Source: Reclinomonas americana ATCC 50394 | Taxonomy: Eukaryota | Length of the DNA stretch: 64,000 nt | Direction of reading: 5' to 3' | NCBI GenBank assembly: GCA_048213135.1 | Contig: PS015219.1 | Coordinates: 84,225 to 148,224 of the forward strand | Shown: piece after piece, positions 3,001 through 64,000 of the stretch | How positions within the stretch are numbered: position 1 is the first letter of the stretch | Layout: the number at the start of each line of letters is the position of its first letter | Notes under the pieces: model-generated | Seen by the model: only the letters and a program-made list of their open reading frames with translations | The model's database searches: none | What the model was told of the DNA's origin: nothing | Position numbers and translations under genes: made by a program

Positions 3001-4823
3001 TGCAGATGAGCGCGACGTCCACGCCCGTGAGGTGTCCAAGCTGGAGGCGTCACGTGTGGCGCTGTCGAACGACAAGCAGGAGCTGCAGGCTGTGTTGCTG
3101 CAACGCGAGCAGCAGCTGGAGGACATTCGTGCCAAGGTCGAGGAGCTCATCCGCGAGCGCCTTGTCATGAGCAGCCGCATCAACGCCTACGAGACGGAGC
3201 GTGAGGCGGTGCACAGCAATGTGGAGCGCAAGGAGAAGGCGCTGCAGGAGTCGCTCGCACAACTGCGATCGCGCTACGAGCAGGCCGAAATGCTGAACCA
3301 GTCGTACCGCGAGCAGCGNNNNNNNNNNNNNNNNNNNNTGCGCAGCTGGAGGAGCACTCCAACTCGCTGGCCACGCAGCTGGAGACCATGGACCGCGAGT
3401 TCCAGGAGACGGCCAAGCAGCTGCGCGATCAGAACGAGACGCTGAAGCGCCAGATTGCCAAGCTGTCGGACGAGAAGGCGACGCTGGAGAAGCGTGTGGC
3501 CACGTTGGAGAGCGAGATCCGCACTCGCGACCAGGAGCGCGGCCACTTGTCGTCGCAGGTGTCGCAGCTGAGCGATGTCGGCCGTCGCAACAACGACGAG
3601 ATCAACGACCTCACCATTCAGCTCGAGAAGTCCAACTTGTCGTTCAACCAGCTGCAACAGCACGCCGCGCAGCTCAACAAGGAGCTCGACGCACAACGGC
3701 GCGCGTACCGCCAGCTGGAGGGCGAGAAGGAGGTTTGTTTCTGTGTATGTGTTTGTTCTTGCCTTCTGNNNNNNNNNNNNNNNNNNNNNNNNNNNNNNNN
3801 NNNNNNNNNNNNNNNNNNNNNNNNNNNNNNNNNNNNNNNNNNNNNNNNNNNNNNNNNNNNNNNNNNNNNNNNNNNNNNNNNNNNNNNNNNNNNNNNNNNN
3901 NNNNNNNNNNNNNNNNNNNNNNNNNNNNNNNNNNNNNNNNNNNNNNNNNNNNNNNNNNNNNNNNNNNNNNNNNNNNNNNCGTCTTGTGGTGGATGCCTGA
4001 CTCTCGTGTTGCCTTCCTGTGTGCAGAACCTGGAGGTGACTCTGCGAAGGACCTCGAACGAGGCTGCGCTGCACGCGTCATCGCTGCAGGACCGCATCAC
4101 TCGTCTGGAGGACGACATTCGCGACCTGACACTGAGCATTGAGGAGAAGAAGCACCAGATTGCCGCTCGCCAGTCGACGATTGGCCAGCTGGAGGTCGAG
4201 CGCGACAACATCAAGCACATGTACGATGACTTGCAAGAGGAGCGCAAGATTATGCAAGTGGCGCACGAGAACCAAGGTCAGTCTTGTTGTTGTTTTCCCG
4301 CTCTTGCACGCTCTGGCCACCAAGTATGCTCACCCTGTTGTCCGCAGTGCGTTCGCTGCAAGACTCCATGTCGCAGTACCAGCGCCAGTTGCGCCAGACA
4401 CAAGACCTGGTCATGTCGCTGCAGCGCAAGTCCAACCCGGGCGTGGCTAGCGTCTACTACCCGCCGACGCCGACATCGTCGGACATGTTGGGCATTCCGC
4501 CGGCGACAATGCCCTCAGTACCAGCGCCGAGCTCTGCGTCGGCCGTGGGCGCTGCCGCGGCCTACCGCGAGAGCCCAGTGCCATCGCGCTTCAGCAGCTC
4601 ACCGCTGTCGCTGTCGGGTGGCGCCAGCCTGCCAGGAACGCCGGGCACTGCACGGAACCTGACCGACCTCAACTCGATGCTCGACTCGATGCATCACACC
4701 ACGCAGCACCAGACCTCTGCGCTGCAACGAAAGATCGATGACATGCAGGCTGAGAACGCCCGCTTGGCCTCGTCGGCTTCCGGCTCGTCGGCCTACGCGC
4801 CTGGTTCGAGCTTCCGACGATAA
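1..4823 (+). CDS. Large coiled-coil protein with a Pro/Ser-rich C-terminal tail; 5' end outside the window, spans N gaps
   Basis: E/Q/R/L-rich heptad exons are joined in frame by GT-AG introns starting near 1040, 1393, 1543, 1823, 2167, 2745, 2927, 3733 and 4277. Strong GC3 bias. Stop TAA at 4821-4823. Confidence 0.85.
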
Positions 4824-6468: not shown

Positions 6469-9400
6469 TTATCGTACGGCGCGAGCCAGTGGCAGCATGC
6501 CGAGTGTCGGCTCTCGCGAGGCCGGCAGCGGCACCAGTCGAACCAGGATGCTGCGGGTGGGACATGAGTGAGCGCGCGAGTGGAGACTTCCACGGTGGAT
6601 AGCGTGTGTCGGCTCACCGTTCTCCCACCGCCAGCGAAAAATCGGTAATGCCATCGACAGAGACAGTGTGCGACTTGCGCGGCCCATCAAACACGACTCG
6701 ACGCAGGTGCGCCGCTTGCGTCGACGGCACAAACAGGCCTTGCACTCGTGGACAGCACTCCAGCGCAAAGCGCACTCGCAACGCCGACACCTCCACCACC
6801 ACCTGTGCGCACGTTAGAGATGAGATGTGTGGATCGGGAATGAAAACACGGACACGGCCAAACGCACCGCCACCTCCTCCACCGCCAGTCGACTGGAAAT
6901 CGTCTGCAGATTCTGAGCATTAACCTTGCTGGTTGCCGCCTGCACAAGTTGTGCAACGGCCGTTGCGTGCGCGCAGAACTGCAGGGGTGCGAGGTGAGCG
7001 ACTTGTGACGTGTGTGATGCGCAATCTGGTTGGCGGGAGGTACCTCATCAACTGCAGCCTCATCCAAGTGCACATCCAGTGGTAGCGACAAGACGTCGCG
7101 TTTCAGCAAGCGGTGCACCGTCAGATCCATGTAGCTGCCAGCGACCAAGTCAGGGGTGAGTGAAAGAAAAGAGAGGTATGATGGCAGAGAGGAAACAAAT
7201 ACCGTCGCAGGGGCGCCACAAAGTGCGTGTGCGCCATGGTGTTCAGACCAACTGTGAGAAGAGCGACGTCAGGCACACAACAAATCCACACTCAAACAGC
7301 CACAACGCAGCGCGCAACAGTGAATCCAGCGGTCGGTCGGTGTCGTGGTATCAAAGCGTGCCAAGGCGCACGGCGGAATCACCTTGGTGACTTGAATACC
7401 GATGATCTACCACCGCAAACATCGATGTGAGCTTACAGCTGGCCAGCACAAAGTGCAACAATCATGGGACACACCATTGCCAGCGCCGGGTTCACCGTCA
7501 TCGCAAACTCCATCTCGCGATGAATGGCACGCAGCAGCGTGTGCGCCGACTCCTGGTAGAAGGTGTGGTCCACCACCTCCAGGTCGAGCGGGAGGACGGG
7601 CATCTGTGTGCACCACGTGCGCGCGGTGAGTAAATAATCATTAACCCCACTGTCGCGGTGGCGATACACACCTCCTCGTCACGGATCCTCAAACCGTAGC
7701 GACGACACAGTTCCGCCAGCCGCACCTGCTGCAGCGGCGCAATACTCGGTTGCACAGAGAGCGGACACAACTGCATGCGCTGAGTCGGTGAGAACGTAAA
7801 GCGAACACGCAAAACGCGAAGAGAGACAGTGCCCATGCCACCTTGCATCCAGTTTCCAACAGCCGCCGAGTGATCAACTGGTTAGCCACAAGAGCGCACT
7901 CGTCGATCGCGCGAGTTGCATCGAGCGTCTCGGCAGAGCGGAAACCGCGAGGCAAACCCTGCGCATCGAACGTCAACGCAATCTGCGGCACGTCAAACAC
8001 TCGAGCATCTGCATGCACAACAAAAAAAAAAAAAACAGACAATCAGCAACCGTCGATGCAAGAGGAGTGGCGTGTGCAACAGACAGACCGCCTTGTTGCA
8101 AGCGGCGCAGATGGCGGGGAAGCATCAACTGGCAGAAGAGACGAAGGAGCTCCGCCAGCTCGGCGGTGACGCCCGGAACATCGTCGTGCCCAGCCTGCAA
8201 GTTGCAGAGTGGGTCAGTCCAATAACTCACTGTCTAATGCAGGCCATCTCAAACACACCACGTACCATAACAAGCTGTGCTGCGTCGCGGGAAACCAACG
8301 ATGTGGGTCGAATCACACACTGACCGAGCCACGGCGTATCGGGGCACACTTGCCCATCCAACGTCATGTACCACACAATGGAGAGGGTGAAGAAATCGCG
8401 ATCAGTGCGCAGCGCGGCCATGTCTAGTACAGCCTGCGGCAGCATCTCTTGTTTCTACGCACACAAAGACACGCGCACATGAGCACTGGGAATTCACACG
8501 CGCACACATCACCACACACAAACCCTGTCGGACAGCTGGTACGTGCACACGCGCTTACGACACTCCAAATCCAACTCGGAGCCAGCCTCCACAAAGTGCG
8601 TAATGTCGGGCACATGAAGACCCTGCACAAACGTGTGTGGGCGAAAGACAGACAGACAGGGAAGATATCTGTTGGCAGATGACGCAACAACTTCACACAC
8701 GCCCGGGCGATCGGGCATCATGCGCAAGTGCACCGCCGCATCAAAGGGCGCCGCAAATGGCGGATTCTCAAACGCAAACAAGTGACCGCGCCCGCGCAAA
8801 TCCAGACGACCCGCAAATTCCGGCAGCTGGTGGCGCACCACATGAGCGTCGTTGACAAGAGAACAATAAGAGAGAAGCCAGAAGAAAACCTGTGCAGAAG
8901 AGGCAAGACGGCATGCTTCCGCGGTGAACGGCGGCAACGGCACTCGATTGGGTCCAGTCGGCAACGCGCACGAAGCAAGCACCGCATTGAACTGCACCTC
9001 CGGATCCGATTGCGAACCTGTACATTCATCGGCGCGATTCAGCAACGGCTTTCAGCGTGGCACAAACAAACAATGTAACCACACACCAAACACTGCCACC
9101 AACTTGCCCCGTGGATGCTTTCTGTTCTCCGGCCAGTCCACAATCTGCACTTGCACCATCGTACTTGCCGTTCTGCGCAACAAAACAATGAGCATCAGTG
9201 TGACGGCGATCAACAGCCGTCCGTGAAAACGCAACAGCGGCTGCTGCACGGCCCCATCCACTTCCACATCCACCAACGGCAACGAACGATCCGACGGCAC
9301 CATCAACAATCCACTGCGCGACACGATCAGAGTCAACAAAGGGCCAGCAACAGTGGATTAAAAAAGTCTCTGAGTCGCAACTCATGCGAGCGGAATCGCT

Positions 9401-12400
9401 GCATCACACCCACTGCAATCACTGGCGCCAATCGGTTCACGGCCACCACGCGGCCCACCGGTACACGCTGAAATCCGGGCGGGGGAATCACTCGATCTGA
9501 GGGGAAGAAGGGAACGTGTGAGTCTCAGCAGCATCACATCAACAGGTCAGCACATAGCAAGACGTAACCGAGCTCAGACACAATGTGCACACGTCGGGGG
9601 ACAGCCTGCAGACACACGTGTGAGTAGCACAAAACGCCAAACACACACACACAGTCCCACCGCGTCCCACCTCATCTGCCTCCTCATCCAAAAACAAATC
9701 CCCGTACACGCCCATCGGTTCACACGACTCATTGGTCGACTCCTGCGGGCGACAACACGTCGTCAGTTTCACCGCCCAACAGCCGCACATGATGACGACA
9801 ACAACGACAGCCATGACTCACCGGCACAATGGCCTCTTCGCCACACAAGAACACGTGCACCTCGTCGCCGCGCACGGCACGGTTCGCATGCACCAGGTCC
9901 GGCAAAAGGACACGCGGAACACCTTCTTCAGCAAATTCCACCCACCGTGAATCCGTCGACACCACACCCTTCAGCACCGTGCTCAACTGGCGGACGGAGA
10001 GAGAGAGGGAGAGAGAAAGTGAGCGGGTGTGAGAGACGATTGGATGGGACAGCAAGACACAGCTCTGTCAAACCTCCAGGCCCTTGCTGAGTACACTGGC
10101 GGGCAAATACTTGACGTATCCGGTCAACGGGTCCTTCATCTCCTCCACACAATGCGCCACCTCACCACGCATCGAATTCAACACCACCCAGCCACGCACC
10201 AGCCGGTCAAACTGCAGCAGACGAGAGTGCGATTCAGAATCAAATCGTAATTGGAGAAGCCTGTGGAACACGTACCTCCTCCACCGTGGACGGACGGTCC
10301 AAGCTGACCACCGATCTCATCGCCATGCACTGATACGCCATGTCCATCTGCTTTGAACGCATCTCTTTCAACTCGCGCTGCAGCGAGGCCACCACATCTT
10401 GATAGTACTGTTTCGCGGTGGTGTGAGCCGCACTGTCACACACACACACACACACGCGCGCGCTTCGTGCGAATGCAGGTGGCGCACCTTTTCGGATCGC
10501 GCCAGCTCCTGCTGTACGACTTGGCTCGCGCTCGCCGGTGACTTTGGTACTGCGACAGCTTGAATTTGCAAGTAAGTATGGTGGGTGGATTCATCCTCAG
10601 CGCGGCGCACCACGTATGCGTTACCTTGCACAAGATGCATCGCGTGCTCCACGTCACTGGCAGCGGCACGTAGAACCGACTGCTGCGCACTCGGCACCTC
10701 GGTCGCCACGGACGAGAGTCCACGAAGCGCTCGCTGTACGCGAACGGTGAGCAGTCAGACGAAGAGCATGTCATGCATGCGACGGAATCTGCTGCGTTAC
10801 CTGCAGCAGCGCCACAAGTCCCTCCGCCATTGCTGGAGCACCACCAGCTCCATTGGTCACCGGCGGCTGTGTCGCAGCAGCAGTGGCAAAAGACGCGCCA
10901 CCCAAAGACATCTGCGAATTCTTCATGATGATGATGCCAAAAGAGTGGGAAGAGGAGAGCAGACTGCGCTTCGCACGACTCACCGGCACCGGTGACATTG
11001 CTGGCGGCGTCGAGCCTGCAACCGCAGCCATGCTGGCACTACCCGCCATACCGGCACCAGCTACACGTGTATATCGCGAATGAGTAACGTGAGGCTTCGT
11101 TGCTATTCACGTCTCTCGCACTCACCACTCGGCGACACAAACGCGTCGTTTGCTGTTCGAGCACAAACAGGGTGAGTGTTGCGGAACTCAAAGATGCACG
11201 TGCATAAGGGCACTCAACGAGACTGCTGCGGACGGATCTGCGGCGAGGATGGATTGCTGTTTGTCTGCTACACGTGTCACGTGTGAGTCTACAACACGAT
11301 CGCCACCCCTCGCGAGCAAAAAGCAACTCAATCAAACGCGCACCATCGACGAAGCATCGGCGCCGCCACCTGCCACCTCTCCCAACATGGACGACACACG
11401 CTTCTCCACCACCGGCGTCACCGCCGGACGAACCACTGCTGCCGGCTTTCTCGCTGCCGCACCCACTCCACCGACCGCTGCCGGAGGTTTACGAGCCACC
11501 CGCACCACCTCACGTGCCTGCAGGGCCAGCAAATTTGGACGCTGCGGGAAGAAGAATAATATATTGTCAGAGAATGAAATAATATCGATGCACACAGTAA
11601 CGCGACGCAACATCCATGTGCACAATTCGGAATCGCACTTCCTTGCCATTCATCTGATCCGGCGTCACACCCGTCACCGAGCCATTCTCGAGATGATCCC
11701 ACGGAAAGTAGATACCAATCTTTTGATCCGCCGCTGTGCCGCACAAATATTTCACCCATTACGTACCACACAATAAAAAAGCAGGGCCAGAAAAAATGTC
11801 GGTGTACGTACCAACATAGGGTGCCACCACACGCTCGTACTCGGGATTCACAATAAAGCCGAACTGCCCGGGTTTACAATCCAGCAGGCGCCCAACATGC
11901 TCCGAGTGCACCGGAAACGTCACACGCAGCTTCTCATCCAGCGACATCTTCTTGTTTGCTGCACCCTTGCCACCAGCACCACCCGCCACCGCTGCCGCCG
12001 CCGAGCGACTCGACTTGTCGCTCCACGGCTGCGCAAACACCTCTTCTTCAGTCAACTCGGCAATTTCCGGTCCCTGAGAGAGGTGTGAGTCTTGGTGGCA
12101 CGAAACACACCCGTCCCCATTACACGCACACACACAGACCTCCTGCCACAGCCGCTCCCCTGGCACCGCCGGATGAGCGGCATGCGGATCGCTCCCTTGT
12201 CGCTTCCGCTGATCACGCCCACCATTCCGTTGCAACGTCCCACTGGCCCACTCCTGCAAATCCGAGTCGTCACCCGACGCGTGCTTACCGCCCTTGGCCT
12301 TTGCATCCATCGCCTTTCCGCCACCGCCACCACCATTCACATCATGATCTGCATCCACCNNNNNNNNNNNNNNNNNNNNNNNNNNNNNNNNNNNNNNNNN

Positions 12401-12937
12401 NNNNNNNNNNNNNNNNNNNNNNNNNNNNNNNNNNNNNNNNNNNNNNNNNNNNNNNNNNNNNNNNNNNNNNNNNNNNNNNNNNNNNNNNNNNNNNNNNNNN
12501 NNNNNNNNNNNNNNNNNNNNNNNNNNNNNNNNNNNNNNNNNNNNNNNNNNNNNNNNNNNNNNNNNNNNNNNNNNNNNNNNNNNNNNNNNNNNNNNNNNNN
12601 NNNNNNNNNNNNNNNNNNNNNNNNNNNNNNNNNNNNNNNNNNNNNNNNNNNNNNNNNNNNNNNNNNNNNNNNNNNNNNNNNNNNNNNNNNNNNNNNNNNN
12701 NNNNNNNNNNNNNNNNNNNNNNNNNNNNNNNNNNNNNNNNNNNNNNNNNNNNNNNNNNNNNNNNNNNNNNNNNNNNNNNNNNNNNNNNNNNNNNNNNNNN
12801 NNNNNNNNNNNNNNNNNNNNNNNNNNNNNNNNNNNNNNTGTGAGTGAGCGCGTGGGAGAGTGTGAGAATGAGTGTTGCTTTTACAACACCTCTTTGGCGA
12901 CCGGACCCCAAGGTTTGATGTTGCTCCGTTTCTCCAT
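6469..12937 (-). CDS. RNase II/RNB-family protein (DIS3L2/Ssd1-like) with a long low-complexity N-terminus and an extra cold-shock-like domain; probably nuclease-dead
   Basis: Motifs: HANRAVRGDEVHV (CSD1), IVDWPENRKHPRGKLV (CSD2), EVGLHVPDITHFVEAGSELDLECRKR and [28 protein letters not shown] (RNB). Upstream exons (GRLLDCKPGQFGFI..GIYFPWDHL..EVRFRI) join in frame through introns 11153-11218 and 11061-11125. The first exon at 12937 lies beyond an N gap and is tentative. Confidence 0.8.
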
Positions 12938-20807: not shown

Positions 20808-20965
20808 CAACAACACACGTACGTTCTAGATGCACGTCTGCACAGCCNNNNNNNNNNNNNNNNNNNNCGTCAGTCTGCTGTACGGTCCGAACGGACGGAG
20901 TGTACGGTACGACGTAGACGACGACAACAACACACACAAACAACACAACAACACACACACACAAC

Positions 20966-24009: not shown

Positions 24010-24538
24010 AGTGTTGCCGTGCAGGAGCAGCAGTCTGTTGCCAATGCATCAGGCGCAGCGAAGAACTCATTCGTCTCTCTGAATACAATGAAGCTGGAGT
24101 TACCTTTGTTTGTACCTTCTCGTCTCAGGTCACATGCGCAGCATTACCACTGCCTGACGCTTCCTTGCTCATGGCCCGACGCAAGAGGTCTTCTCATCAT
24201 GCCTCCACTTGACCACAACGCACCCATCACATGCGCCAAAATGCAGTCGGATGCCGTTGCTGTATCGTTCTTGCATATCATGCCAAACACCTCATCGCAA
24301 AACGCTCGCTCCTCCTCAAGCACGCATGGACTGAGAGCCACCTACATGATGAGGATCACAAGTGATCATTTGCACAAACAAGATCGCTCTAGGTGAGAAC
24401 CACAATGCGCGGTTCCACAACAGTGCACGCCGAGTACACAGCGACACCAACATGCACAGCCATCGAGTAGAGTGAGAAAGGAAGTCAGATCGATCGGATA
24501 AACCATGGAAACCAACATCATCACCCCACCACCCAACC

Positions 24539-25897
24539 ATGAGCCAACTTTTGCACCTCGCCGACACGGCCTTTGCCTCGAACTTCCTGTCGATGATGAG
24601 CGACGACACGTACAGGTGAGCCGCGGAAAGAGAGCGACATGGTCGGATCAATCCACGACACACACACACACGCACACTCCCTCTTCCTCTCTCTCTCCCC
24701 TGGCGCACTGTCCTCTACACACACACTCGCTCTTCCCCCCTCCTCTCTTCCCACGCACTCCATCGCGAGAGAGACATCGATATCACAACCAAAACGACCA
24801 ACGACTCCATTCTTCCTCTTCTGCTCGTTGNNNNNNNNNNNNNNNNNNNNNNNNNNNNNNNNNNNNNNNNNNNNNNNNNNNNNNNNNNNNNNNNNNNNNN
24901 NNNNNNNNNNNNNNNNNNNNNNNNNNNNNNNNNNNNNNNNNNNNNNNNNNNNNNNNNNNNNNNNNNNNNNNNNNNNNNNNNNNNNNNNNNNNNNNNNNNN
25001 NNNNNNNNNNNNNNNNNNNNNNNNNNNNNNNNCCCTCTCTCTCCCTCTGTGCTCTTGTGTGTGCGCGTGGTACGACAGTGCCTGGAGTTCGTGTACGGTG
25101 GCGCCGTGGAGATCCGCTCTGCCGACGTGCTCGATCTGCTGTACACGGCGACGGAGTTGGGAGTGACGGCGCTGCGGCAACAGTGCCTCGAGCACGCCTT
25201 GCGAAACATCAACGACGACACGGTCAACTCGTACTTTGGCCTGTCGTTCATGATTGACGTGGCGCCGCTGCGACAGGCCTGCATCGAGTACATTAATCGC
25301 AACACGGAGCGCGTGATTGCTCACAAGGCACGTTGTTCGGTGTATCGTTGTTGTTTATTCCCCGGCGGTGCCCTGACTGTGCCGGTGGGCGCAGGACTTG
25401 GCACAGCTGCCGCCACAAGCCATGGACACACTGCTGCGACTGGATGCACTGACAGCAACAGAGGCGTCTCTGTTCCGCGGTCTGTTGGTGTGGGGCATCA
25501 CCAAGGCCCTGGAAAGATCGAGCACCATCGAGGCGTGTGTGTCGCAAATGCACGCATGTGCGTACTCGTGCTCTCTTTCTCTCTCTCCTCCCTCTTCTTA
25601 TTACCCCTGACTCATTCTCTTCTGCTTTCAGCCTCACCTGTGGACAAGGCGCGTGTGGCGGAGGCGATTTTGGACCATTTGAAGCTGCTGCAACTCGATC
25701 GATTCTCGTACCAGGAGGTGGAGGACACGCTGGAGGCCAGCGGAGTGGTGCCGCAGACCATGGTGCTCGAGGCGTACAAGCGTTGCGTTAGCCTCTCCAA
25801 CAGATGTTTCGTGCCCTTTTCACTCATTTTGGTTGGTGCAGTGCAAGCAAGAGAGACGGCCGGCCAGGTTGTACGCCGACGATGCCGCGGCATGTGA
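24539..25897 (+). CDS. BTB/POZ-BACK domain protein, partly in an N gap
   Basis: FLSMMSDDTYS, CLEFVYGGAVEI..DLLYTATELGVTALRQQC and a BACK-like LAQLPPQAMDTLLRLDALTATEASLFRGLLVW. Confidence 0.8.
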
Positions 25898-47619: not shown

Positions 47620-48432
47620 ATGAGCGTGTCATATGAGGAGTTTGATGCGTTTGTGACGCGCTACTGGTCGGCGCTACTGGTCGCCTCCGCAGTGCTCTTT
47701 TTCCTGTGCAGCTGGCTCTTTGGCAAGTTCAAGGCGATGCTCTATCGCTTGCGTTCCACGCGTTGCGTCTCACACACACTCTCTCTCTGTGACTTCTGTG
47801 TGTGCCTCTCTCTCATGCACGCGCACGGACGCAGGCTTTGATCGCAACGACCGCCGTGTCAAGGCCATCTTTGAGCAAAAGCGCGAGCGGCAGCTGGAAG
47901 AGGAGGAGGAGCGAGTGCGAGAGCGCTTGCGGCAGCAGCAGGAGCGACAGGAGGCCATGAGGTTGGCCTCTCTCTTCTCTTTCTCTCTCACGCATTCCCT
48001 TCGGCATTGACGCTCACTTCTTGCCACAGACAACAGGCAGTGGAGCGCGCCATCCCCAACGTCCTGCAGGCGCAACAGCGGCGGAGAAGACTCGGCGGTG
48101 GGGCCACGGAGCGAGTTGCGTAGTGTGCTGATTCTCTGTCTTGCTGGGGGAGTGTGATTGCTGACGCGACACTGTCAACGCAGCCGCCACGTGTCGAGAG
48201 ACGCGACGGCGAGAACGACAGTGAGAGTGGCAGTGGCAGTGAGCGTGACGACTCGCCTCCGCCACGAGCGCCCGCTCCGCCTCCGGTGTCACGGCCGCCG
48301 AACCCCTTCTCCTCGTCGTCCTCCAGCAACAGCCGGGCTTACAACCCGCTGGATGGCGGTGGCGGATTCCGCACGTACAGGCCCACTCGCCGCTACGGCA
48401 ATGGTCGGTGCGGTCCGTCCGGATGAGGTTAA
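47620..48432 (+). CDS. SELENOS: Selenoprotein S-like protein; in-frame TGA (48424-48426) predicted to encode Sec
   Basis: N-terminal TM helix, charged coiled coil, then the tail AYNPLDGGGGFRTYRPTRRYGNGRCGPSG-TGA-GGT-TAA, matching the SelS YNPL..RPxRR..G-U-G-stop pattern. Confidence 0.85.
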
Positions 48433-48484
48433 GCCGGCAGGCGGGAGAATGTTCCCGTCTGCGCCGTGTTGATAGCTTCTGTTT

Positions 48485-48571
48485 GTGTCGATCTGTATTT
48501 TGCGTGTGACGGGTGGAGCTTGAATTGGAAACCACCATCGTGTGGGCCGCTTCCACCCTGATGTGCGACAC
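48485..48571 (+). promoter_or_regulatory. Candidate SECIS element (GUGA variant) in the SelS 3' UTR
   Basis: G-TGAC at 48506-48510 and TGAT at 48559-48562 flank a GGGTGGA/TCCACCC stem. AA occurs 12 nt after the core. An outer GTGTCG/CGACAC pairing is possible. Confidence 0.7.
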
Positions 48572-48610
48572 ATTGAAGACGAGGCTACTATGGAGAGGCC
48601 CCCTATGTTT

Positions 48611-49838
48611 CTATCGTTTACTCCTCACTGGCGGCGGTGCGGTAATGTCGAATGGCTCGTCGTCCGTCTTTGTGATAATATCTAACTCGTCGTTATCGCC
48701 ACCGTCGCCATCGTCGGCTTCGGCATCGGGTGCGGAGCCCATCACCGGCACCTGCTTCTCTCGTAGCATCTGAACAATGGCAGCACGTAAGTCCGCGATA
48801 CCCGCACTTCGCTTGCTGCTGGTGACAATGAGCAGAGGCACAAACAGCCCCGCCTCGCCGTATCTCAACAAGGCCTGCGCAGCGTTGTGGTGTAAGCACA
48901 TCGTCGGCAATCGCCACAAACGAGAAACGCAACTGACTGCATCACGGTGTTGGCGACGGTAGACAGTTGCGCATCGTTGACACAGTCGGCCTTGGTGAGC
49001 ACGACCTGGAACGGTCGAGAGCACGACACGAGGAAGTCCATGAACTCCAAGTCGGCCGGCATGAGATCGCCTCGTCGACTGTCGATGAGAATCAGAATGC
49101 GCTTCAGACTGCACGAGGCGAGAAGAGAAGACGGTGGGTGAGAACACCAAGCACGCACGAGCACACACTCTCCTCTCCTGCATGCAACCTTCTCGACGTG
49201 GTCATGCTGTGGTGAATCAGGTCGTGGAAACGCTCGGTGGCCTGTCGCGGAGCATCGGCGTGCCCGTACCCCGGCAGATCCAACAGCAGCACCTTGCCCG
49301 CCATTTGCGCATTGCGGATGCCGTAGTAGTTCAGCGTTTGCGTGCGACCCTGTGTACGTGCACTGAGTCCAGCACGCAACGCGAACAAGAGAGGCGAGGA
49401 AGCCACCGACCGGCGTCTTGGAGATCTTGACGAGCGCCTTTTGGTTGACCAGCGCATTGATGAGCGACGACTTGCCGACATTGGAGCGGCCGGCAAAGGC
49501 CACCGTGGGTATCTGTCGCTCGTTGAGTCGCTCGGCCTCGTGCACGCTGTACAGCAGATCGAAATCCTGCGAAAACATGACCCTGATCCTCAGTGAGATC
49601 CTCAGCGATCAGCTGGTGTGTATCAAGAAGCAAAAGAACACGCGCACCTCGCCACGCGATGCTGCGCAGCGTTGGGCAGTGGCAAGCGGAAAGGATTGAC
49701 AAATGCATGCTGGCGACCTGTGCAGGAGAAAGATCAGCGACTCATCTCCACTGGCGATGCTCCCTGTGTGTGCTTATCACCAGTGGCAGATGTGGAGAAG
49801 AGGCGATGCACGCAGAGGCCTCGTCGCAGAGCTTGCAT
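48611..49838 (-). CDS. engB: EngB/YihA (GTPBP8-like) ribosome biogenesis GTPase, probably organelle-targeted
   Basis: G1 [28 protein letters not shown]3 DLPGYG and G4 LTKAD. The N-terminus [17 protein letters not shown] is presequence-like. Confidence 0.92.
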
Positions 49839-54865: not shown

Positions 54866-57800
54866 CTACTTTTTCGCTAATTGCAGCCCGTTGGTCGTTG
54901 GAACTGCGTCACTATTTTGCTGCTGCGGAGGCACTGCCGCCTGCCGGTNNNNNNNNNNNNNNNNNNNNGCCGCCCCCGCTGCCATCGCCTGATCGCGCTC
55001 CGCCAGGTTCTTCCAGTACGCCAGATTTTGTGTTAGTTGCTCCTCGAGGAACGCCAGGTCGGGCACCAGTTTCGAGACGAGGCGGTAGGCCGGCAGTCCC
55101 ACGTTGGTGTCGAAGCCGACTTGCAAACTGGCCAGTGTGGTCCGATCTCGATCGCAGATGGGCGTCACTGGCAGGTTGTGCCTCTTCTCGGCATCGCCCT
55201 GGTTGAAGAACTCGCTGAGCATGACCTCGGCCCAACGATGCGCCAGAGTCGTTGGCCTCGCAATGTTGCTAATGTCGGCAATCTGCGAACAAACACAAAA
55301 TGAGAAACTCATCTGCCCTGCTTTCTCTTCTTTTCTTCGCGCGCACACCTTCATGAGCATGCCAATCATCGTTCGCCGCGTGGTGAGGTCACGACGAGCG
55401 AGGCCACCAGAGGAGATCAGTTCGGAGAATCGCTTCAGCCAGTCACCGTGCTTGGCCATGTCGGTGGCCAAGATCAAGCCCACCAGACTTTGGTAGAACT
55501 CGTGACTCTCGTCGGCGGTCAGGTTGGTCAGAATGTTGCAGTCGGGCAAACTGAGAATGCCGACCGCCAGAGCCGCGTGGTGTGACTCCATCGTGCTCTC
55601 CTTGTTCAGCATTGCAAAAGGTGACTCGATGGCATTGATGTGGCCATTATTGAAGCTGCAGGCGTTGCATGAATATGTTAGTCGCGAGAANNNNNNNNNN
55701 NNNNNNNNNNNNNNNNNNNNNNNNNNNNNNNNNNNNNNNNNNNNNNNNNNNNNNNNNNNNNNNNNNNNNNNNNNNNNNNNNNNNNNNNNNNNNNNNNNNN
55801 NNNNNNNNTCAAGTCAGCAAGAAGAAGACAGCGATCGATCGACGAGGGGACGATGCACCATTCCAGGGACCAGTGCGCGTCCACCATCCGGCCGCGCCTG
55901 ATGATGCGCAAACCAGTTGGTGGCCACCAGTCGTCGCAGCAGAGGACTGCATGCAGGGGAGATGTCAACACGAAGAAACAAAGATGAGGACGATGATGAT
56001 GAACAGTTCGCACCACGCCTCACTGGTCTCCCACGGAGTGACACCCGTGCGCCATGCCTCATCCCACCCTGCTCGCACGTGAGAACAAGCTGTGCAGAGT
56101 GAGAGTGAGAGAGAGAGAGACCTTCTGCTTGCTCCTTGCTCGACATGATCTCCTGCAGCTTTGTGCGCTGCACTTGATGTGACATGCCAGTGGTGCTCAA
56201 CGGTCGCACTGAGGGCGGTTGTGCGAGATGGCGCAGGAGCACAAGAGCGCGACGTCGCACGAGCATTTGGATGGGACAGTGTGATTGCGCGAGCACATAC
56301 TGCGACCGTTTTTAGGCTGTGAGCGAGAGAAAGAGTTCGGAGCAAAAAAGAAACCAACAGGGGATTCCGAAAGCCACTGGAGCAACACCCCCAGTCGTCC
56401 TCTCTGGTCTCAGTTGCTGCGGCGGCGTGGTTGAGTTGTCTCACATGCGCTTTTCGGTCAACTTGACGCGTGTCGAACGCGGAGCTGTCACGCAACAACG
56501 TGTGGAGGTGGATGCTGCGGCTGACGCCACTCTGCGGGATGTGAAGGCGTTGGTGAAGGCGCAGACGGGTGAGTGTGGGGTGGACGGCTCTTCCTTTGTG
56601 CCTATTCCTTGCCGGATGCGTGTGCGTGTATTTGATTTCTCGTGACGCGCCGTTAGTATTCCGAAACACTCCCTTCACTCTCACACTCCTTTGCGTGCGT
56701 TCTCTCCCTTCTGTGTGCGCACCCCTGAAAGGGCGAGAGACGCACACACGCACGCACACACACACAGCCGTGTCATTCTTTGTTTCGTGTATCACTCACG
56801 TTTTCCTCAATACCGGCACTCGTCCGTCTGTCTCTCGTTTGGTTTGTGTGTCTTCCGGCTCACGCTCGCATCTGACGGCAGGTTTCGAGGAGTGGAGTCA
56901 GGTACTATCGTATGATGGGCTTGCGCTGGACGATGCCAATGCGCTGCAAGACATTGGAGTGCACGCCGGAGCGACGATGCTCGGCATTGTCAGTTACGTC
57001 TTGTTCCGTTTTCTCGATTTTTTGTGCACGATTGCAATGCATGCATTAACAATCATCGATGCTTACTTGCTTGCTTGCTTTGTAGATCCGGTGCCAATCT
57101 TGGGAGGAGGCGCGCTGTCTTTCGCGCCGGCCCTGGTGACGCCCCGGTTCAGCGAGGATCAGACGCCTCTGAGCAGTGCGCGAGGTGGAAGCATGAGTGC
57201 GCGTGCGACGAGTGCCGGCCGATCACGGGGTGCGAGCTCGGTGGGCTCATCCTCCGTCGGCGAAGCGGCAGCGGGCGTTGCCGGAGCAGGTGGAGCGAAG
57301 CTGCAGACCGCTCGACTGCTGCGCGAACTCATTCCGGCGGAGCGCATGGTGGCCGCCTGCGACCTGCTCGACACCATTGTGACGTGTGGCATGTGCGACA
57401 AGGATCCGTCGGGTCTCATGACCGCGGTGAAGCAGGGACTACCAGGTGCGTGAGTGGGATAAAGGGAGAGAGAGNNNNNNNNNNNNNNNNNNNNNNNNNN
57501 NNNNNNNNNNNNNNNNNNNNNNNNNNNNNNNNNNNNNNNNNNNNNNNNNNNNNNNNNNNNNNNNNNNNNNNNNNNNNNNNNNNNNNNNNNNNNNNNNNNN
57601 NNNNNNNNNNNNNNNNNNNNNNNNNNNNNNNNNNNNNNNNNNNNNNNNNNNNNNNNNNNNNNNNNNNNNNNNNNNNNNNNNNNNNNNNNNNNNNNNNNNN
57701 NNNNNNNNNNNNNNNNNNNNNNNNNNNNNNNNNNNNNNNNNNNNNNNNNNNNNNNNNNNNNNNNNNNNNNNNNNNNNNNNNNNNNNNNNNNNNNNNNNNN

Positions 57801-60800
57801 NNNNNNNNNNNNNNNNNNNNNNNNNNNNNNNNNNNNNNNNNNNNNNNNNNNNNNNNNNNNNNNNNNNNNNNNNNNNNNNNNNNNNNNNNNNNNNNNNNNN
57901 NNNNNNNNNNNNNNNNNNNNNNNNNNNNNNNNNNNNNNNNNNNNNNNNNNNNNNNNNNNNNNNNNNNNNNNNNNNNNNNNNNNNNNNNNNNNNNNNNNNN
58001 NNNNNNNNNNNNNNNNNNNNNNNNNNNNNNNNNNNNNNNNNNNNNNNNNNNNNNNNNNNNNNNNNNNNNNNNNNNNNNNNNNNNNNNNNNNNAATTCGAG
58101 TGATGAGTCGGGGGAGAAGTGGGGCAGCTGCCGCAAGCAGTCTCACCATTGTACGCAAGAGACGGCGCTCGTGATCCACCAGCCACAATGAAACACGCTC
58201 GGCGTCCATGACCTGGATCGAAAGAAACGAAGGGGTGAGTGATCGCGGGGAGGCAAGGGAAACGTGAGGTGCTGCTGACCTCTCGTGACTGCTGCATGAT
58301 CTGATTAATCACATGCTCGTTGGGGGCACCGTTGGTCATCGAGGAAGCAATCGCGAAAATGGACTACGCAATGCGGAGGTCAGTGGTGGTGGAGCAAAGA
58401 AAGAGCACTGACGGGTGAGAGCGGTACACACCCCAATCTTCTGCTTGCCCTCCTGCACGCGACGCGACATGGACTGGTTGTTAAGCGCCACGGCGCAAAA
58501 GTTGGCAATGGCCGTGACCGTGCGTTCGTCGCTGGCACTAAACGTCAAGTCCTTGGCATTCCTCTTGTTCAGCACCTGAAGCGATGCACGAGAAGAGTGT
58601 GAGAAGCAAGCTGCGAGGGCCATGCGCAATCAAGCATTTGAAGTACCTGAATCACACCAATGACGTGTCCGTCGACCGTGACCGGCACGGTCAGCATGCT
58701 GCGAGTAATGTAGCCGCGCTGCTGATCCACCGAGTCGTTGAAGGCCGAGTGTCCGCGCACATTGGGTGTGTTGACCAGCGTGCCAGTTTGTGCGACGTGA
58801 CCAACAATACCGGTGCCCAGAGGCACACGAATCTCCTCCGTGTCTGCGAACCACAAGTGTGAGGCATACAATGTACAACAAAAGTGAGACGCACACACAC
58901 GCTGCACTCACCATGTGCCACCTTGGTCAACAGCACCTCGTTGTCCCAGTCGACCACATACACCGAGCAGCGATCGGCACCGACAATGTCTCGTGTGCAG
59001 TCGGCGATGCGCAGCAAGCAGTTGCTTGTCGTGTCGTGACTGAGAATGTTGGCAAACTCCACGTACGTGTTGCTGCGCACAATCTCCTTTTGTGTGCGCT
59101 CATGATGCAGCGCATTGGTCAGCGAGATGCCGACAAACACTCCGAGAATGGTGCAAAAGTATTCGTCGTCGTCAGTGTACGGCTCGCCGCCGTTCTTGTT
59201 GATGAACTGCAGCACACCAATGATCTGTCCGTGACTCTTGATTGGCAGGCACAGCATGCTCTGCGTGTATGCATGTGAGCCCACCGTTTTCCAACGCGGA
59301 AACGATTTCGAGATGATTTCCGTACCTTGGTGGTGTAGCCGGTGAGCTCGTCGACATCGTGATTGAAACGCGGGTGCGCGTAGGCGTCGCGAACATTGAG
59401 CACCGTCTCTGCAGCGGTCGTGCACACACGAATGAGGAGACGCGTGTGTGGTGCACCACAAAACAGAGAATGCGAGTTGTTACGCACCCGACGTGACACA
59501 CAAGCCCGCAATACCCGATGTCGCGGGCAAGCGGAATTCACTCATGCCATCGGCCATCAGCGACACCAACTCGTTTGTGTCCTTGTCCAACAAGAACATG
59601 GTGGCGCTGTGCATGTGCGCGAGGTGGTGAGTGACGAGCAACATCGTTTTGTCACCGTCGCACTCACCGGTCGGAGCGTGTCAGTGTGCGGGCATCTGTG
59701 AGGATTTGAGATGCGAGTTGTGTGGTCGAAATGTTGCTCTGCGCAGGGCGGTCGGGCAGTGAGGATGCTTGTCGACGTGCAATCACAGTGCAGGCTCGCG
59801 CACCGTGACATCTCGAGCGAATCCGAGAAGCGCCTGCAGTCGGTCCTTGTCGTTGCGTGCGTGCTCGTAGTTGCGCTCCAGCAGCTGCTTGCTGAGAATG
59901 TTGTCGAAGGCCAGGCTGACCGACTGCAACACAATCTCCACCGCCTGCACCACTTGATCGTCCATTTGGCGTCGGCTGCTGCCCCGCTGAATGCCGTAGA
60001 CGAGAACGCCAGCATGCTATGATAGGAGATAGAGTTGGCACACGAGACAGGCATCAAACATATCACAAACAAAGATCCACTCTTACCGATGTCTTGTCGC
60101 GGTTCTGGAACGGCGAAAAGGCTACCTGCGTCACTGGAGCTGCTGTGCCGTGCAGTGCCGGATCATCGGTCCGTGCATTGTATCGTCTGTCGCTCGACAG
60201 ATCTGCGACATGCACCACCGGCGAGCAGCTCAGCACGCTGCATCGAACCTTGCAGACTAAAAAGAACCGATGCTCACCATTGACCACCACCGTGGTCTGC
60301 GTGTTCATGGCAAACATGNNNNNNNNNNNNNNNNNNNNNNNNNNNNNNNNNNNNNNNNNNNNNNNNNNNNNNNNNNNNNNNNNNNNNNNNNNNNNNNNNN
60401 NNNNNNNNNNNNNNNNNNNNNNNNNNNNNNNNNNNNNNNNNNNNNNNNNNNNNNNNNNNNNNNNNNNNNNNNNNNNNNNNNNNNNNNNNNNNNNNNNNNN
60501 NNNNNNNNNNNNNNNNNNNNNNNNNNNNNNNNNNNNNNNNNNNNNNNNNNNNNNNNNNNNNNNNNNNNNNNNNNNNNNNNNNNNNNNNNNNNNNNNNNNN
60601 NNNNNNNNNNNNNNNNNNNNNNNNNNNNNNNNNNNNNNNNNNNNNNNNNNNNNNNNNNNNNNNNNNNNNNNNNNNNNNNNNNNNNNNNNNNNNNNNNNNN
60701 NNNNNNNNNNNNNNNNNNNNNNNNNNNNNNNNNNNNNNNNNNNNNNNNNNNNNNNNNNNNNNNNNNNNNNNNNNNNNNNNNNNNNNNNNNNNNNNNNNNN

Positions 60801-61595
60801 NNNNNNNNNNNNNNNNNNNNNNNNNNNNNNNNNNNNNNNNNNNNNNNNNNNNNNNNNNNNNNNNNNNNNNNNNNNNNNNNNNNNNNNNNNNNNNNNNNNN
60901 NNNNNNNNNNNNNNNNNNNNNNNNNNNNNNNNNNNNNNNNNNNNNNNNNNNNNNNNNNNNNNNNNNNNNNNNNNNNNNNNNNNNNNNNNNNNNNNNNNNN
61001 NNNNNNNNNNNNNNNNNNNNNNNNNNNNCACAGACTGATGCCGGTATCCTCCGTGCGTTGCACAGTCTTGCCTTGATCGTCGACGCAGAACCACACCAAC
61101 TTCTTGTGCCGTGCGTCGTGGAACACGATATTTGCAAAGTCCACCGGCAACACGGCTGTGTGTGGGGGGAGTGTGAGCACGCTGATACTCTTCCTCACTC
61201 TCTCTCTCTCCCTTTCTCCCACTCACGCACCTGGTAGTCCCTGCTTCACCGCGGTCATGAGACCCGACGGATCCTTGTCGCACATGCCACATGTCACAAT
61301 GGTATCGAGCAGGTCGCAGGCGGCCACCATGCGCTCTGCCGGAATTAGCTCGCGCAGCAGTCGAGCCGTCTGCAGCTTCGCTCCACCTGCTCCAGCCACG
61401 CCCGCTGCCGCTTCGCCGACGGAGGATGAGCCCACCGAGCTCGCACCCCGTGATCGGCCGGCACTCGTCGCACGCGCGCTCATGCTTCCGCCTCGCGCAC
61501 TGCTCAGTGGTGTCTGATCCTCGCTGAACCGGGGCGTCACCAGGGCCGGCGCGAAAGACAGCGCGCCTCCTCCCAAGATTGGCACCGGATCTACA

Positions 61596-61629
<34 letters not shown>

Positions 61630-62221
61630 CGATGATTTAATGCATGCATTGCAATCGTGCACAAAAAATCGAGAAAACGGAACAAGACGTAACTGACAAT
61701 GCCGAGCATCGTCGCTCCGGCGTGCACTCCAATGTCTTGCAGCGCATTCGCATCGTCCAGCGCAAGCCCATCATACGATAGTACCTGACTCCACTCCTCG
61801 AATCCTGCCGTCACATGCGTGTGTGAGCCGGAAGACACACAAACCAAACGAGAGACAGACGGACGAGTGCCGGTATTGAGGAAAACGTGAGTGATACACG
61901 AAACAAAGAATGACACGGCTGTGTGTGTGTGCGTGCGTGTGTGTGCGTCTCTCGCCCTTTCACGGGTGCGCACACAGAAGGGAGAGAACACACGCAGAGG
62001 AGTGCGAGAGTGAAGGGAGTGTTTCGGAATACTAACGGCGCGTCACGCATCCGGCAAGGAATAGGCACAAAGGAAGAGCCGTCCACTCCACACTCACCCG
62101 TCTGCGCCTTCACCAACGCCTTCACATCTCGCAGGGTGGCGTCAGCCGCAGCATCCACCTCCACACGCTGTTGCGTGACAGCTCCGCGTTCGACACGCGT
62201 CAAGTTGACCGAAAAGCGCAT
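54866..62221 (-). CDS. Class I cyclic nucleotide phosphodiesterase with an N-terminal ubiquitin-like domain and tandem GAF domains; middle exons missing from the assembly
   Basis: Catalytic C-half ESTMESHH, LILATDMAKH, ADISN and EFFNQGDAEK. GAF motifs DAYAHPRFNHDVDELTGYTT..SMLCLPI..GVLQFINK and GIVGHVAQTG..SMLTVPV..LNK. Ubl-like N-terminus. Linkage across the N gaps is inferred. Confidence 0.75.
55810..57474. repeat. Inverted near-identical copy of 61200-62864, bounded by N gaps
   Basis: The reverse complement matches the 5' exons of the PDE and methyltransferase genes, with scattered SNPs and small indels. Confidence 0.95.
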
Positions 62222-62481
62222 GTGAGACAACTCAACCACGCCGCCGCAGCGACTGAGACCAGAGAGGACGACTGGGGGTGTTGCTCCAGTGGCTTTCGGA
62301 GTCCCCTGTTGGTTTCTTCTTTGCTCCGAACTCTTTTCTCTCGCTCACAGCCTAAAAACGGTCGCAGTATGTGCTCGCGCGATCACACTGTCCCATCACA
62401 ATGCTCGTGCGACGTCGCGCTCTTGTGCTCCTGCGCCATCTCGCGCAACCGCCCTCAGTGCGACCGTTGAGCACTACTGGC

Positions 62482-63697
62482 ATGTCACATCAAGTGCAGC
62501 GCACAAAGCTGCAGGAGATCATGTCGAGCAAGGAGCAAGCAGAAGGTCTCTCTCTCTCACACTCTCTCCTTGGCCGCTGCGCACAGCTCGTTCTCACGTG
62601 TGAGCAGGGTGGGATGAGGCATGGCGCACGGGTGTCACTCCGTGGGAGACCAGTGAGGCGTGGTGCGCATTGTTCATCATCATCGTCCTCATCTTTGTTT
62701 CTTTGTGTTGACATCTCCCCTGCATGCAGTCCTCTGCTGCGACGACTGGTGGCCACCAACTGGTTTGCGCATCATCAGGCGCGACCGGATGGTGGACGCG
62801 CACTGGTCCCTGGAATGGTGCATCCTCCCCTCGTCGCGATCGATCGCTGTCTTCTTTTTGCTGANNNNNNNNNNNNNNNNNNNNCTACACTTGCACAGGG
62901 AACGGGATACGATTGCCACGCGCTCAAGGGCGCCTTCCGCACAGTGGTCGGGCTCGATCTGGTGGAGGTGGCCGTGGAGCGTGCCCGCAAGGTGCTCACT
63001 CTTTCTCTCTTCGTCTCTCTCTCTCTCTCTCTCTCTCATACACAATCGTCGCAGATCGCGGAGGAGCGCAAGGTGGAAGGCTGTGAGTTTATTGCCGCCG
63101 ACTTTTTCACTTACAAGCCCGACAAGCCGTACTCGTTCATCTTTGAGTTGCGTGTGCCGTGCTGCTGCTGCTCGTCTGCCGAGTGCCCGTCACTCACACG
63201 TTCTCCATCTCGTGGTCGCAGTTATGCGTTGCGTCTCTCCGCAAGACGAGAGCAGTGGTCGGTGTGGACATGCTGACCCCTTTCCCTGCCACGCAGCTTC
63301 CTGGCCGCACTGCCACCGTCCCTGCGACAGCCGTGGGCAGAGAAGGTCTGCCATTCCTTGCCGCCGTCTCTGCGACGTAGATTGTGACTGACAACCGTGC
63401 ATCAAAGATGAAGGAATTGTTGTGCCCGGGCGGCGAACTGCTGACGCTCATCTTCCCGCTGGGCACCTACGAGGGCGGCCCGCCATACGCCATGAGCTAC
63501 GAGCTGTTGCGTGAAGTTGTCCCCGAATACCAGTATCATTGGTGCAACGTCGCGCGACTTACACGTTTTTTCCGCGCAGTGTGCAAGGCTTGCTGCGGCC
63601 GCTCGGCTTTGAGAACATCTACGACGAACCAGTGGTGAAGGACTCGATCAAGCCACGCCGAGGCGCCGAGCGTGCCGTCGTATGGCGACGTCCATGA
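62482..63697 (+). CDS. Thiol/halide S-methyltransferase (TPMT/HOL1-like SAM-dependent methyltransferase)
   Basis: GWDEAWRTGVTPWE, RALVPGMGTGYD, ADFF, FIFDYAFLAALPP, PGGELLTLIFP and GGPPY. Confidence 0.9.
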
Positions 63698-64000
63698 AGT
63701 TAAAACAAAAAGTTCGGTTTTTCTTTCGTCCAAAAGTGCCGGCACGCGCTTATTGTTTTTGTGCTCCGATCGCGCAAGCCACCACCACCACCACCGCCAC
63801 TGCCAACTCCCGCGCACGCGACACTAGTGTGAGACACACACACAGAGAGAGAGAGAGTGAGACATGACGAGTCACCGCGACAGTGAGCCTGTGGTCACCG
63901 CACTGGCCTCGGACTCGCTCTACCACCAACTGCACATGCACCAAAAGCCTTCGATGATGGCGACAACGCAGCAGAGTGTGTCGGACGCTGTCAACAACGA

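Follow-up and report, generated by a model that had tools for sequence, protein, structure and literature searches.

A probable selenoprotein S-type gene with a UGA-Gly-stop ending and a candidate type II SECIS element

The window, a whole stretch of 64,000 nucleotides that was analysed here, carries on its + strand a gene at 47620-48432 that very probably encodes a membrane protein of the selenoprotein S (SelS) kind, in which the UGA at 48424 would be recoded to selenocysteine (Sec) through a type II SECIS element. The gene is real and apparently unannotated. Selenoprotein S-type genes are a known and ordinary kind of gene, to which the one described here adds a member. The initial annotation had proposed a SelS-type selenoprotein at this place, and that reading is supported by an in-frame gene model, by the architecture of the protein, by the sole Pfam family detected and by a hairpin that conforms to the published SECIS rules and is unique in the window. 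If the reading is true, the gene would show that the organism uses selenocysteine, and the established picture of Sec decoding stays unchanged. The interest of the gene is modest and lies in two points, a short C-x4-U loop in a protein without the VCP/p97-interacting motif (VIM) and a hairpin resembling the SL1 of human SelS.

Gene model, protein layout and neighbourhood

The initial annotation had taken the coding region as continuous from 47620, which proved incorrect. Starting at ATG 47620, the coding region falls into four pieces that lie in different frames and are bridged by three short introns. The resulting model on the + strand has four exons, three GT-AG introns of 68-73 nt and 200 codons. 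The exons join in frame, and the spliced coding sequence of 603 nt contains TGA (codon 199) and TAA (codon 201) as its sole stops.

Exon 1 (47620..47761, + strand) holds the start codon, a short N-terminal segment and a single hydrophobic (transmembrane) helix at residues ~15-35, and ends at the donor GTTGCGTCTC at 47762. An alternative donor at 47753 (exon end 47752) would give a protein three residues shorter. Intron 1 (47762..47834, 73 nt, GTTGCG...GCAG) restores the frame upon removal and has the same donor type as the other five introns examined. Exon 2 (47835..47961) is helix-prone and highly charged, being rich in E, R and Q, and is followed by intron 2 (47962..48029, 68 nt, GTTGGC...ACAG). 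Exon 3 (48030..48114) completes the charged helical segment and adds an RRRR-GGG hinge. After intron 3 (48115..48183, 69 nt, GTTGCG...GCAG), the coding part of exon 4 (48184..48432) supplies a Gly/Pro/Ser-rich tail with YNPL, GGGG, YRPTRR and CGPSG-U-G, and then the stop; all of these exons and introns are on the + strand. Although unusual, the splice sites agree with one another: donors GT[TC]G and acceptors CAG are found in all six introns examined (three of the SelS-type gene and three of the neighbouring GTPase gene), with intron lengths of 59-80 nt, and four of the six begin with GTTGC.

In the spliced protein, the single hydrophobic helix appears at residues 17-35, where the 19-residue Kyte-Doolittle value peaks at 2.11. 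Charged residues make up 44% of the segment 37-120 and E/Q/R/K/L/A 70% of it, its net charge is +9, and the tail from residue 121 onward is 48% Gly/Pro/Ser. The calls of a transmembrane helix and of a charged helix were made from sequence composition alone. When TGA is translated as U, the last exon ends in AYNPLDGGGGFRTYRPTRRYGNGRCGPSGUG*, in agreement with the YNPL..GGG..YRPxRR tail noticed initially. Cysteine occurs only at positions 30, inside the membrane helix, and 194, the latter five residues upstream of the candidate Sec at 199 (C-x4-U). The spacing had been described as tighter than in vertebrate SelS, which was borne out: it is 5 residues from Cys194 to Sec199 here versus 14 in the human protein. 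The VIM has the consensus RX5AAX2R. A regular-expression search of the spliced protein with this consensus gave 0 matches, and the Ala-Ala dipeptide is absent from the protein.

The neighbouring gene on the - strand is convergent and encodes an EngB/YihA-like GTPase (48611..49578; MMR_HSR1, 1.1e-09). It has three introns and its stop TAG is at 48611-48613. Between this stop and the TAA of the SelS-type gene there are 178 nt, close to the roughly 180 nt that had been estimated, and the 3'UTRs of the two genes must overlap. The window as a whole is eukaryotic, with ~55% G+C and 11 N runs totalling 2707 bases, and its recognisable genes are GET4, SUN, BTB, Vps18, TMEM260-like, EBP-like, EngB-like, HlyIII/PAQR and GAF-PDE. 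For the PDE domain, the nearest database relative has 48% identity. None of the three opposite-strand open reading frames (48014-48571, 48289-48573 and 47770-48075) matched a Pfam family at E<=1.

The UGA codon and the structures downstream of it

The predicted Sec codon UGA (48424..48426, + strand) is codon 199 of 200 and is followed by GGT and by TAA at 48430-48432. The succession TGA, GGT, TAA had been pointed out before and is read directly at 48424-48432. A penultimate UGA followed by Gly and a stop is a feature of the SelS family, and in human SelS the penultimate residue is Sec188 (extracts of PMC3628699 and PMC13524514). On both strands of the window, 7 of the 1856 TGA triplets are followed by GGN and a stop.

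One way to read such a codon is as an ordinary sense codon of a variant nuclear code, unrelated to selenocysteine. Because the window offers few recognisable true gene ends, some room is left for this account, but the TGA coincides precisely with the Sec position of the family, and a SECIS-like element goes with it. Furthermore, TGA is the stop of 10 of 13 further frames that are long or supported by Pfam. One of these ten is a HlyIII-family frame of 309 residues, in which the Pfam match extends to position 221 of the 224 in the profile and leaves 53 residues up to the end of the frame; of the remaining frames ended by TGA, most may terminate within an intron. A variant code is extremely improbable on this evidence.

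For the preferred reading, in which UGA 48424 is decoded as Sec, a candidate type II SECIS is available at 48500..48568 on the + strand. Its quartet is formed by UGAC 48507-48510 and UGAU 48559-48562 and fits the core consensus UGAN/KGAW (extract of PMC3753652) with tandem G-A/A-G. Helix I (48500-48504 with 48564-48568) is weak, having 5 bp of which two are G-U. When the fold is computed with the quartet held unpaired, U48505 and G48506 are unpaired as well. In helix II, GGGTGGAGC at 48511-48519 pairs with GCTTCCACCC at 48549-48558 through 9 bp and one bulge. Above it, a 7-nt 5' internal loop holds the unpaired AA 48523-48524, and a mini-stem (48527-48548) is closed by a 6-nt loop. The initial annotation had described a TGAC...TGAT core closing a stem and preceded by G, about 75 nt downstream of the reading frame; the core is there, with G48506 in front, and the distance from TAA to this G is 73 nt. 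The element ends 42 nt short of the stop of the convergent gene.

The published SECISearch criteria (extract of PMC2375036) require 10-13 nt from NTGA to AA and 15-39 nt from AA to GA, and the candidate has 13 nt and 35 nt, respectively. The same criteria limit the energy of the whole structure to at most -12.6 kcal/mol and that of the upper stem to at most -3.7 kcal/mol, and the values obtained were -21.5 and -17.7 kcal/mol; these were computed by current ViennaRNA with the quartet unpaired, the thresholds having been set with the original program. In a scan that also required at least 8 consecutive pairs beside the quartet and a KGAW 3' side, the candidate was the only rule-conforming site on either strand of the window, with 0.077 expected from 300 first-order Markov simulations. 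For the 178-nt stretch on this strand, the chance expectation is ~1e-4 SECIS-like sites. Without the KGAW requirement, 1 site was observed versus 0.36 expected. Three other SECIS-like sites were set aside. One, at 8512-8453 on the - strand, is GT-rich and of low complexity; it was flagged by a looser scan and fails the published AA-GA spacing. The other two, at 24363 on the + strand and 24132 on the - strand, pair over no more than 5-6 bp and are without KGAW.

The distance of 80 nt from the UGA to the SECIS candidate is short. Minimal UGA-to-SECIS spacing in mammals is roughly 50-110 nt.

The initial annotation had named the element a non-canonical GUGA SECIS candidate. A GUGA candidate is indeed present, in which the canonical A 5' of the quartet is absent and G48506 takes its place, but the word non-canonical was too strong, the G form being normal in Ostreococcus and common in Chlamydomonas and sponge. 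According to an extract of PMC2375036, G before the quartet is the rule in O. tauri, where almost all SECIS elements also have a long mini-stem, a long mini-stem is likewise seen in Chlamydomonas, and G before the UGA core was already known from zebrafish and nematode genes. Another survey gives GUGA_AA for most Chlamydomonas and Ostreococcus SECIS and for 12 of 21 sponge SECIS (extract of PMC3473315). Judged by its sequence, the candidate is thus of a recognised, lineage-typical form and represents no new kind of element.

A second structure lies directly behind the coding region. It is a stable hairpin at 48435..48466 on the + strand, with 11-13 bp and the loop AAUG at 48448-48451, and is a candidate Sec redefinition element. 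The stem has its first nucleotide at 48435 or 48437, according to the pairing register, and the hairpin ends at 48462-48466, which places the start at nucleotides 3 to 5 of the 3'UTR and 9-11 nt behind the UGA. Folding energies are -23.7 kcal/mol (z -3.98) for the segment 48424-48475 and -20.0 kcal/mol (z -3.38) for the segment 48433-48468; in both cases none of 200 shuffles was as good. The Sec redefinition element (SRE) of SelN lies 6 nt downstream of its UGA (extract of PMC3628699). The positional match in this single sequence suggests that the hairpin may have the same role as SL1 of human SelS. Chance pairing in GC-rich sequence is an equal possibility, even though no shuffle out of 200 matched the hairpin. 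The initial annotation makes no mention of this hairpin.

The stability of the SECIS candidate is ordinary: the 86-nt hairpin has a z of -0.68, with 48 of 200 shuffles as good, and the upper stem has a z of -1.37, with 21 of 200. An energy within the shuffled range would fit a reading in which the gene is real and the TGA a plain stop, with the protein ending in ...CGPSG and the hairpin being either a chance mimic of a SECIS or a structure that serves the convergent 3' ends. The Rfam SECIS model does not recognise the hairpin either: scans of 501 nt and 87 nt, run without a positive control, gave no SECIS family at E<=10, and the whole window gave none at gathering score. The Sec machinery that the initial annotation had inferred for the organism is putative: the tRNA search of the window returned 0 tRNA genes and hence no tRNA-Sec, and no other Sec machinery lies in the window. 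Human SelS, too, is known to give a truncated isoform that lacks Sec (extract of PMC3628699). On the other side, the very context that marks the Sec position of SelS, a TGA with Gly and a stop behind it, is as infrequent among the TGA triplets as given above, a hairpin satisfying all published SECIS rules would hardly ever be expected in the stretch, and an exceptionally stable hairpin follows the UGA at 9-11 nt. Because these three rare features coincide, a plain stop is disfavoured. SELENOS in algae, moreover, occurs almost exclusively in the Sec form, yet it is among the least widely distributed families (PMC7539508). Taken together, we regard termination at this TGA as very unlikely. The Rfam scans also returned mir-598 (E 0.085), snoR639, Sphinx_1, HCV_5BSL1 and Prion_pknot, all far below their gathering scores and treated as chance.

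Family assignment and relatives

If the UGA is decoded as Sec, the question of the family remains. Selenoprotein_S (PF06936) was the sole Pfam family at E<=10 in all four versions of the tail that were scanned. The match, obtained with the single exon, covers ~25-30 residues and scores 8.9-10.9 bits versus a cut-off of 29.8 (E 0.43-1.7). It always falls at the C-terminal end of the profile, at positions 159/165-188 of 192. An E of ~1 over 24,736 Pfam models corresponds to about 5e-5 for the Selenoprotein_S model alone, and it is not an independent test, because the hypothesis of the initial annotation came from the same motif. Exons 1-3, scanned singly against Pfam, gave no relevant family.

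Searches for relatives returned little. When the last exon was compared by phmmer with 1.84 billion representatives, there was one match (E 8e-4), an unrelated Ser-rich repeat protein of 495 residues, which was rejected as a relative since the match was judged to be driven by composition. A word-index search with the last exon against longer proteins gave 0 matches at E<=0.01 among 431 candidates, and residues 43-82 of this exon gave 0 matches at E<=10 among 20 candidates. Neither exon 2 nor exon 4 had a match in the PDB at E<=10, and the 80 residues before the TGA found no usable match in the ESM Atlas. Because the 1.84 billion representatives do not include the exon itself, exon 4 seems to be missing from public gene predictions. 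The SelS-type gene was apparently missed by gene predictors, as no predicted protein in that collection holds its last exon. Absence from gene predictions is common for selenoprotein genes, and Sec is missing in 22 of 36 SelS records (extract of PMC3628699).

Because the Pfam score is below the cut-off and no relatives were found, membership in the SelS family rests on the short motif and the architecture, and it is probable, not proven. The gene might instead encode a selenoprotein that is no SelS orthologue, namely a lineage-specific small membrane protein with Sec in its tail, similar to SelK or SelS, whose Gly/Pro/Arg-rich tail arose by convergence. The confinement of the profile likeness to the last 25-30 residues at a score below threshold would fit such a protein, and so would the resolving Cys at -5 rather than at -14, the lack of a VIM-like motif and the failure of the phmmer and word-index searches to retrieve homologues. 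Such a protein fits less well with the length of 200 residues versus 189 in human SelS, with the order of the parts and with the exact U-G-stop ending, all of which agree with SelS. None of the Pfam scans in which Selenoprotein_S was the only family at E<=10 returned the SelK family, whose members have ~94 residues, and an SL1-like hairpin lies at the place typical of SelS. A convergent protein of this kind is therefore quite unlikely, and SelS itself remains the preferred assignment. SelS is listed as a Sec protein for both Ostreococcus species.

Proposed decoding and comparison with known selenoproteins

In the proposed mechanism, a nuclear intron-containing gene would give rise to an ER-type membrane protein that is active at its tail, a disordered segment ending in Cys-Gly-Pro-Ser-Gly-Sec-Gly. 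The ribosome would meet UGA199 two codons before the true stop, and the proximal hairpin would slow it there and probably aid recoding, in the manner of SL1 in human SelS. A SECIS-binding protein and the Sec-specific elongation factor with its Sec-tRNA would be recruited by the SECIS 80 nt further on, and the C-terminus would be extended by Sec-Gly. Sec199 and Cys194 may then form a small selenylsulfide loop (C-x4-U) as a redox-active end. The putative cellular role would be that of a redox switch, in which the pair cycles between the selenylsulfide and the reduced state at the cytosolic end of a protein that is anchored in the membrane and for the most part disordered.

Two consequences for the study of SelS follow. 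Because the region from Cys174 to Sec188 is the most conserved part of animal SelS (extract of PMC3628699), the variant with Cys at -5 provides a ready-made test of loop length in the selenylsulfide switch. The second consequence concerns the hairpin placed like human SL1, which makes it possible to test by comparison whether a UGA two codons before the true stop generally requires such a structure. A further, speculative possibility, which we hold to be doubtful, concerns the history of the family. The gene may represent a SelS with a six-residue C-x4-U loop and no canonical p97-binding motif that keeps a hairpin at the 9-nt distance of human SL1. The SL1-type enhancer would then be ancient and integral to the decoding of a penultimate UGA, and the 15-residue loop and p97 recruitment would be later acquisitions on the animal side.

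The known system closest to the gene is SelS (SELENOS/VIMP; PF06936), which occurs in animals and in green algae such as Ostreococcus. Both have the same size of ~200 residues and the same order of parts: the N-terminus is short and leads into a single transmembrane helix, which is followed by a charged helical region and then by a disordered tail rich in Gly, Pro and Arg. Human SelS is a single-pass protein of 189 residues with a small luminal N-terminus, in which helices are followed by a disordered segment (extracts of PMC3628699 and PMC13524514). The human loop reads C174SWRPGRRGPSSGGU188G (extract of PMC13524514). An aromatic-RPxRR motif is shared, YRPTRR here versus WRPGRR in the human protein, and YRPTRR...GPSGUG parallels the human loop. 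Also common to both are a penultimate Sec followed by Gly and the stop, a SECIS (here a candidate) in a short 3'UTR and, with human SelS, a stable hairpin ~9 nt after the UGA. In contrast to human SelS, Cys lies 5 residues before Sec instead of 14, which would give a six-residue C-x4-U loop in place of a 15-residue C-x13-U loop, and when the two proteins are aligned on the aromatic-RPxRR motif, Arg occupies the position of Cys174. Unlike animal SelS, the protein lacks the VIM of the consensus RX5AAX2R, and its match to the profile stays below the Pfam cut-off.

The SECIS candidate shares with the type II SECIS of Ostreococcus and Chlamydomonas the UGAN/KGAW quartet, the unpaired 5' G, a 9-bp helix II, the 5' AA and the mini-stem. 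It differs from them in its weak helix I and in that the Rfam SECIS_1 model is silent on it, and the host resembles Ostreococcus neither in gene density nor in intron content. With SL1 of human SelS and the SRE of SelN, the hairpin behind the UGA has in common that a stable stem-loop follows the codon at a short distance, a likeness of position and form in which no similarity of sequence can be claimed.

Surroundings of the SECIS candidate

The EngB/YihA-like GTPase gene (48611-49578, minus strand; MMR_HSR1, 1.1e-09) is convergent to the selenoprotein S-type (SelS) gene, and 42 nt separate its stop from the base of the candidate type II SECIS hairpin. Therefore, the 3'UTRs of both genes must overlap in antisense. 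When the whole 178-nt region between the two stops was folded, helix I below the SECIS candidate was found to continue as a long, imperfectly paired stem, in which 48464-48505 pairs with 48563-48598 (plus strand). Overall, this 178-nt fold was not significantly stable: its z was -1.49, and 17 of 200 shuffles folded as well.

Another hairpin-like GUGA...GA pattern, located in GT-rich low-complexity sequence at 8453-8512 (minus strand), was detected in the first loose SECIS scan. This second site was rejected, as it violates the published AA-GA spacing of 15-39 nt (SECISearch criterion; PMC2375036) and is missing from later scans.

Introns of the convergent genes

Six introns were examined, three in the SelS gene (47762-48183, plus strand) and three in the EngB-like gene (48875-49410, minus strand). 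All six, which are 59-80 nt long, have a GT[TC]G donor (GTTGC in four, GTTGG and GTCGG in one each) and a CAG acceptor. The GT[TC]G donor is unusual, and together with the acceptor and the short intron length it may represent a lineage signature.

Assembly gaps, base composition and the GAF-PDE gene

The window contains 11 N runs totalling 2707 bases (672-960, 3319-3338, 3769-3979, 12360-12838, 20848-20867, 24831-25032, 54949-54968, 55691-55808, 57475-58092, 60319-61028 and 62865-62884), and thus the assembly is a gapped draft. Several of the long "ORFs" listed for the window are artefacts of these runs. In the last 8 kb (56001-64000), the G+C content drops from 55-60% to 47-49%.

A cyclic-nucleotide phosphodiesterase gene with a GAF domain lies at 54866-59479 on the minus strand (PDEase_I, 4.4e-46; GAF, 7.8e-11). 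Its closest database relative shares only 48% identity, which suggests a poorly sampled lineage.
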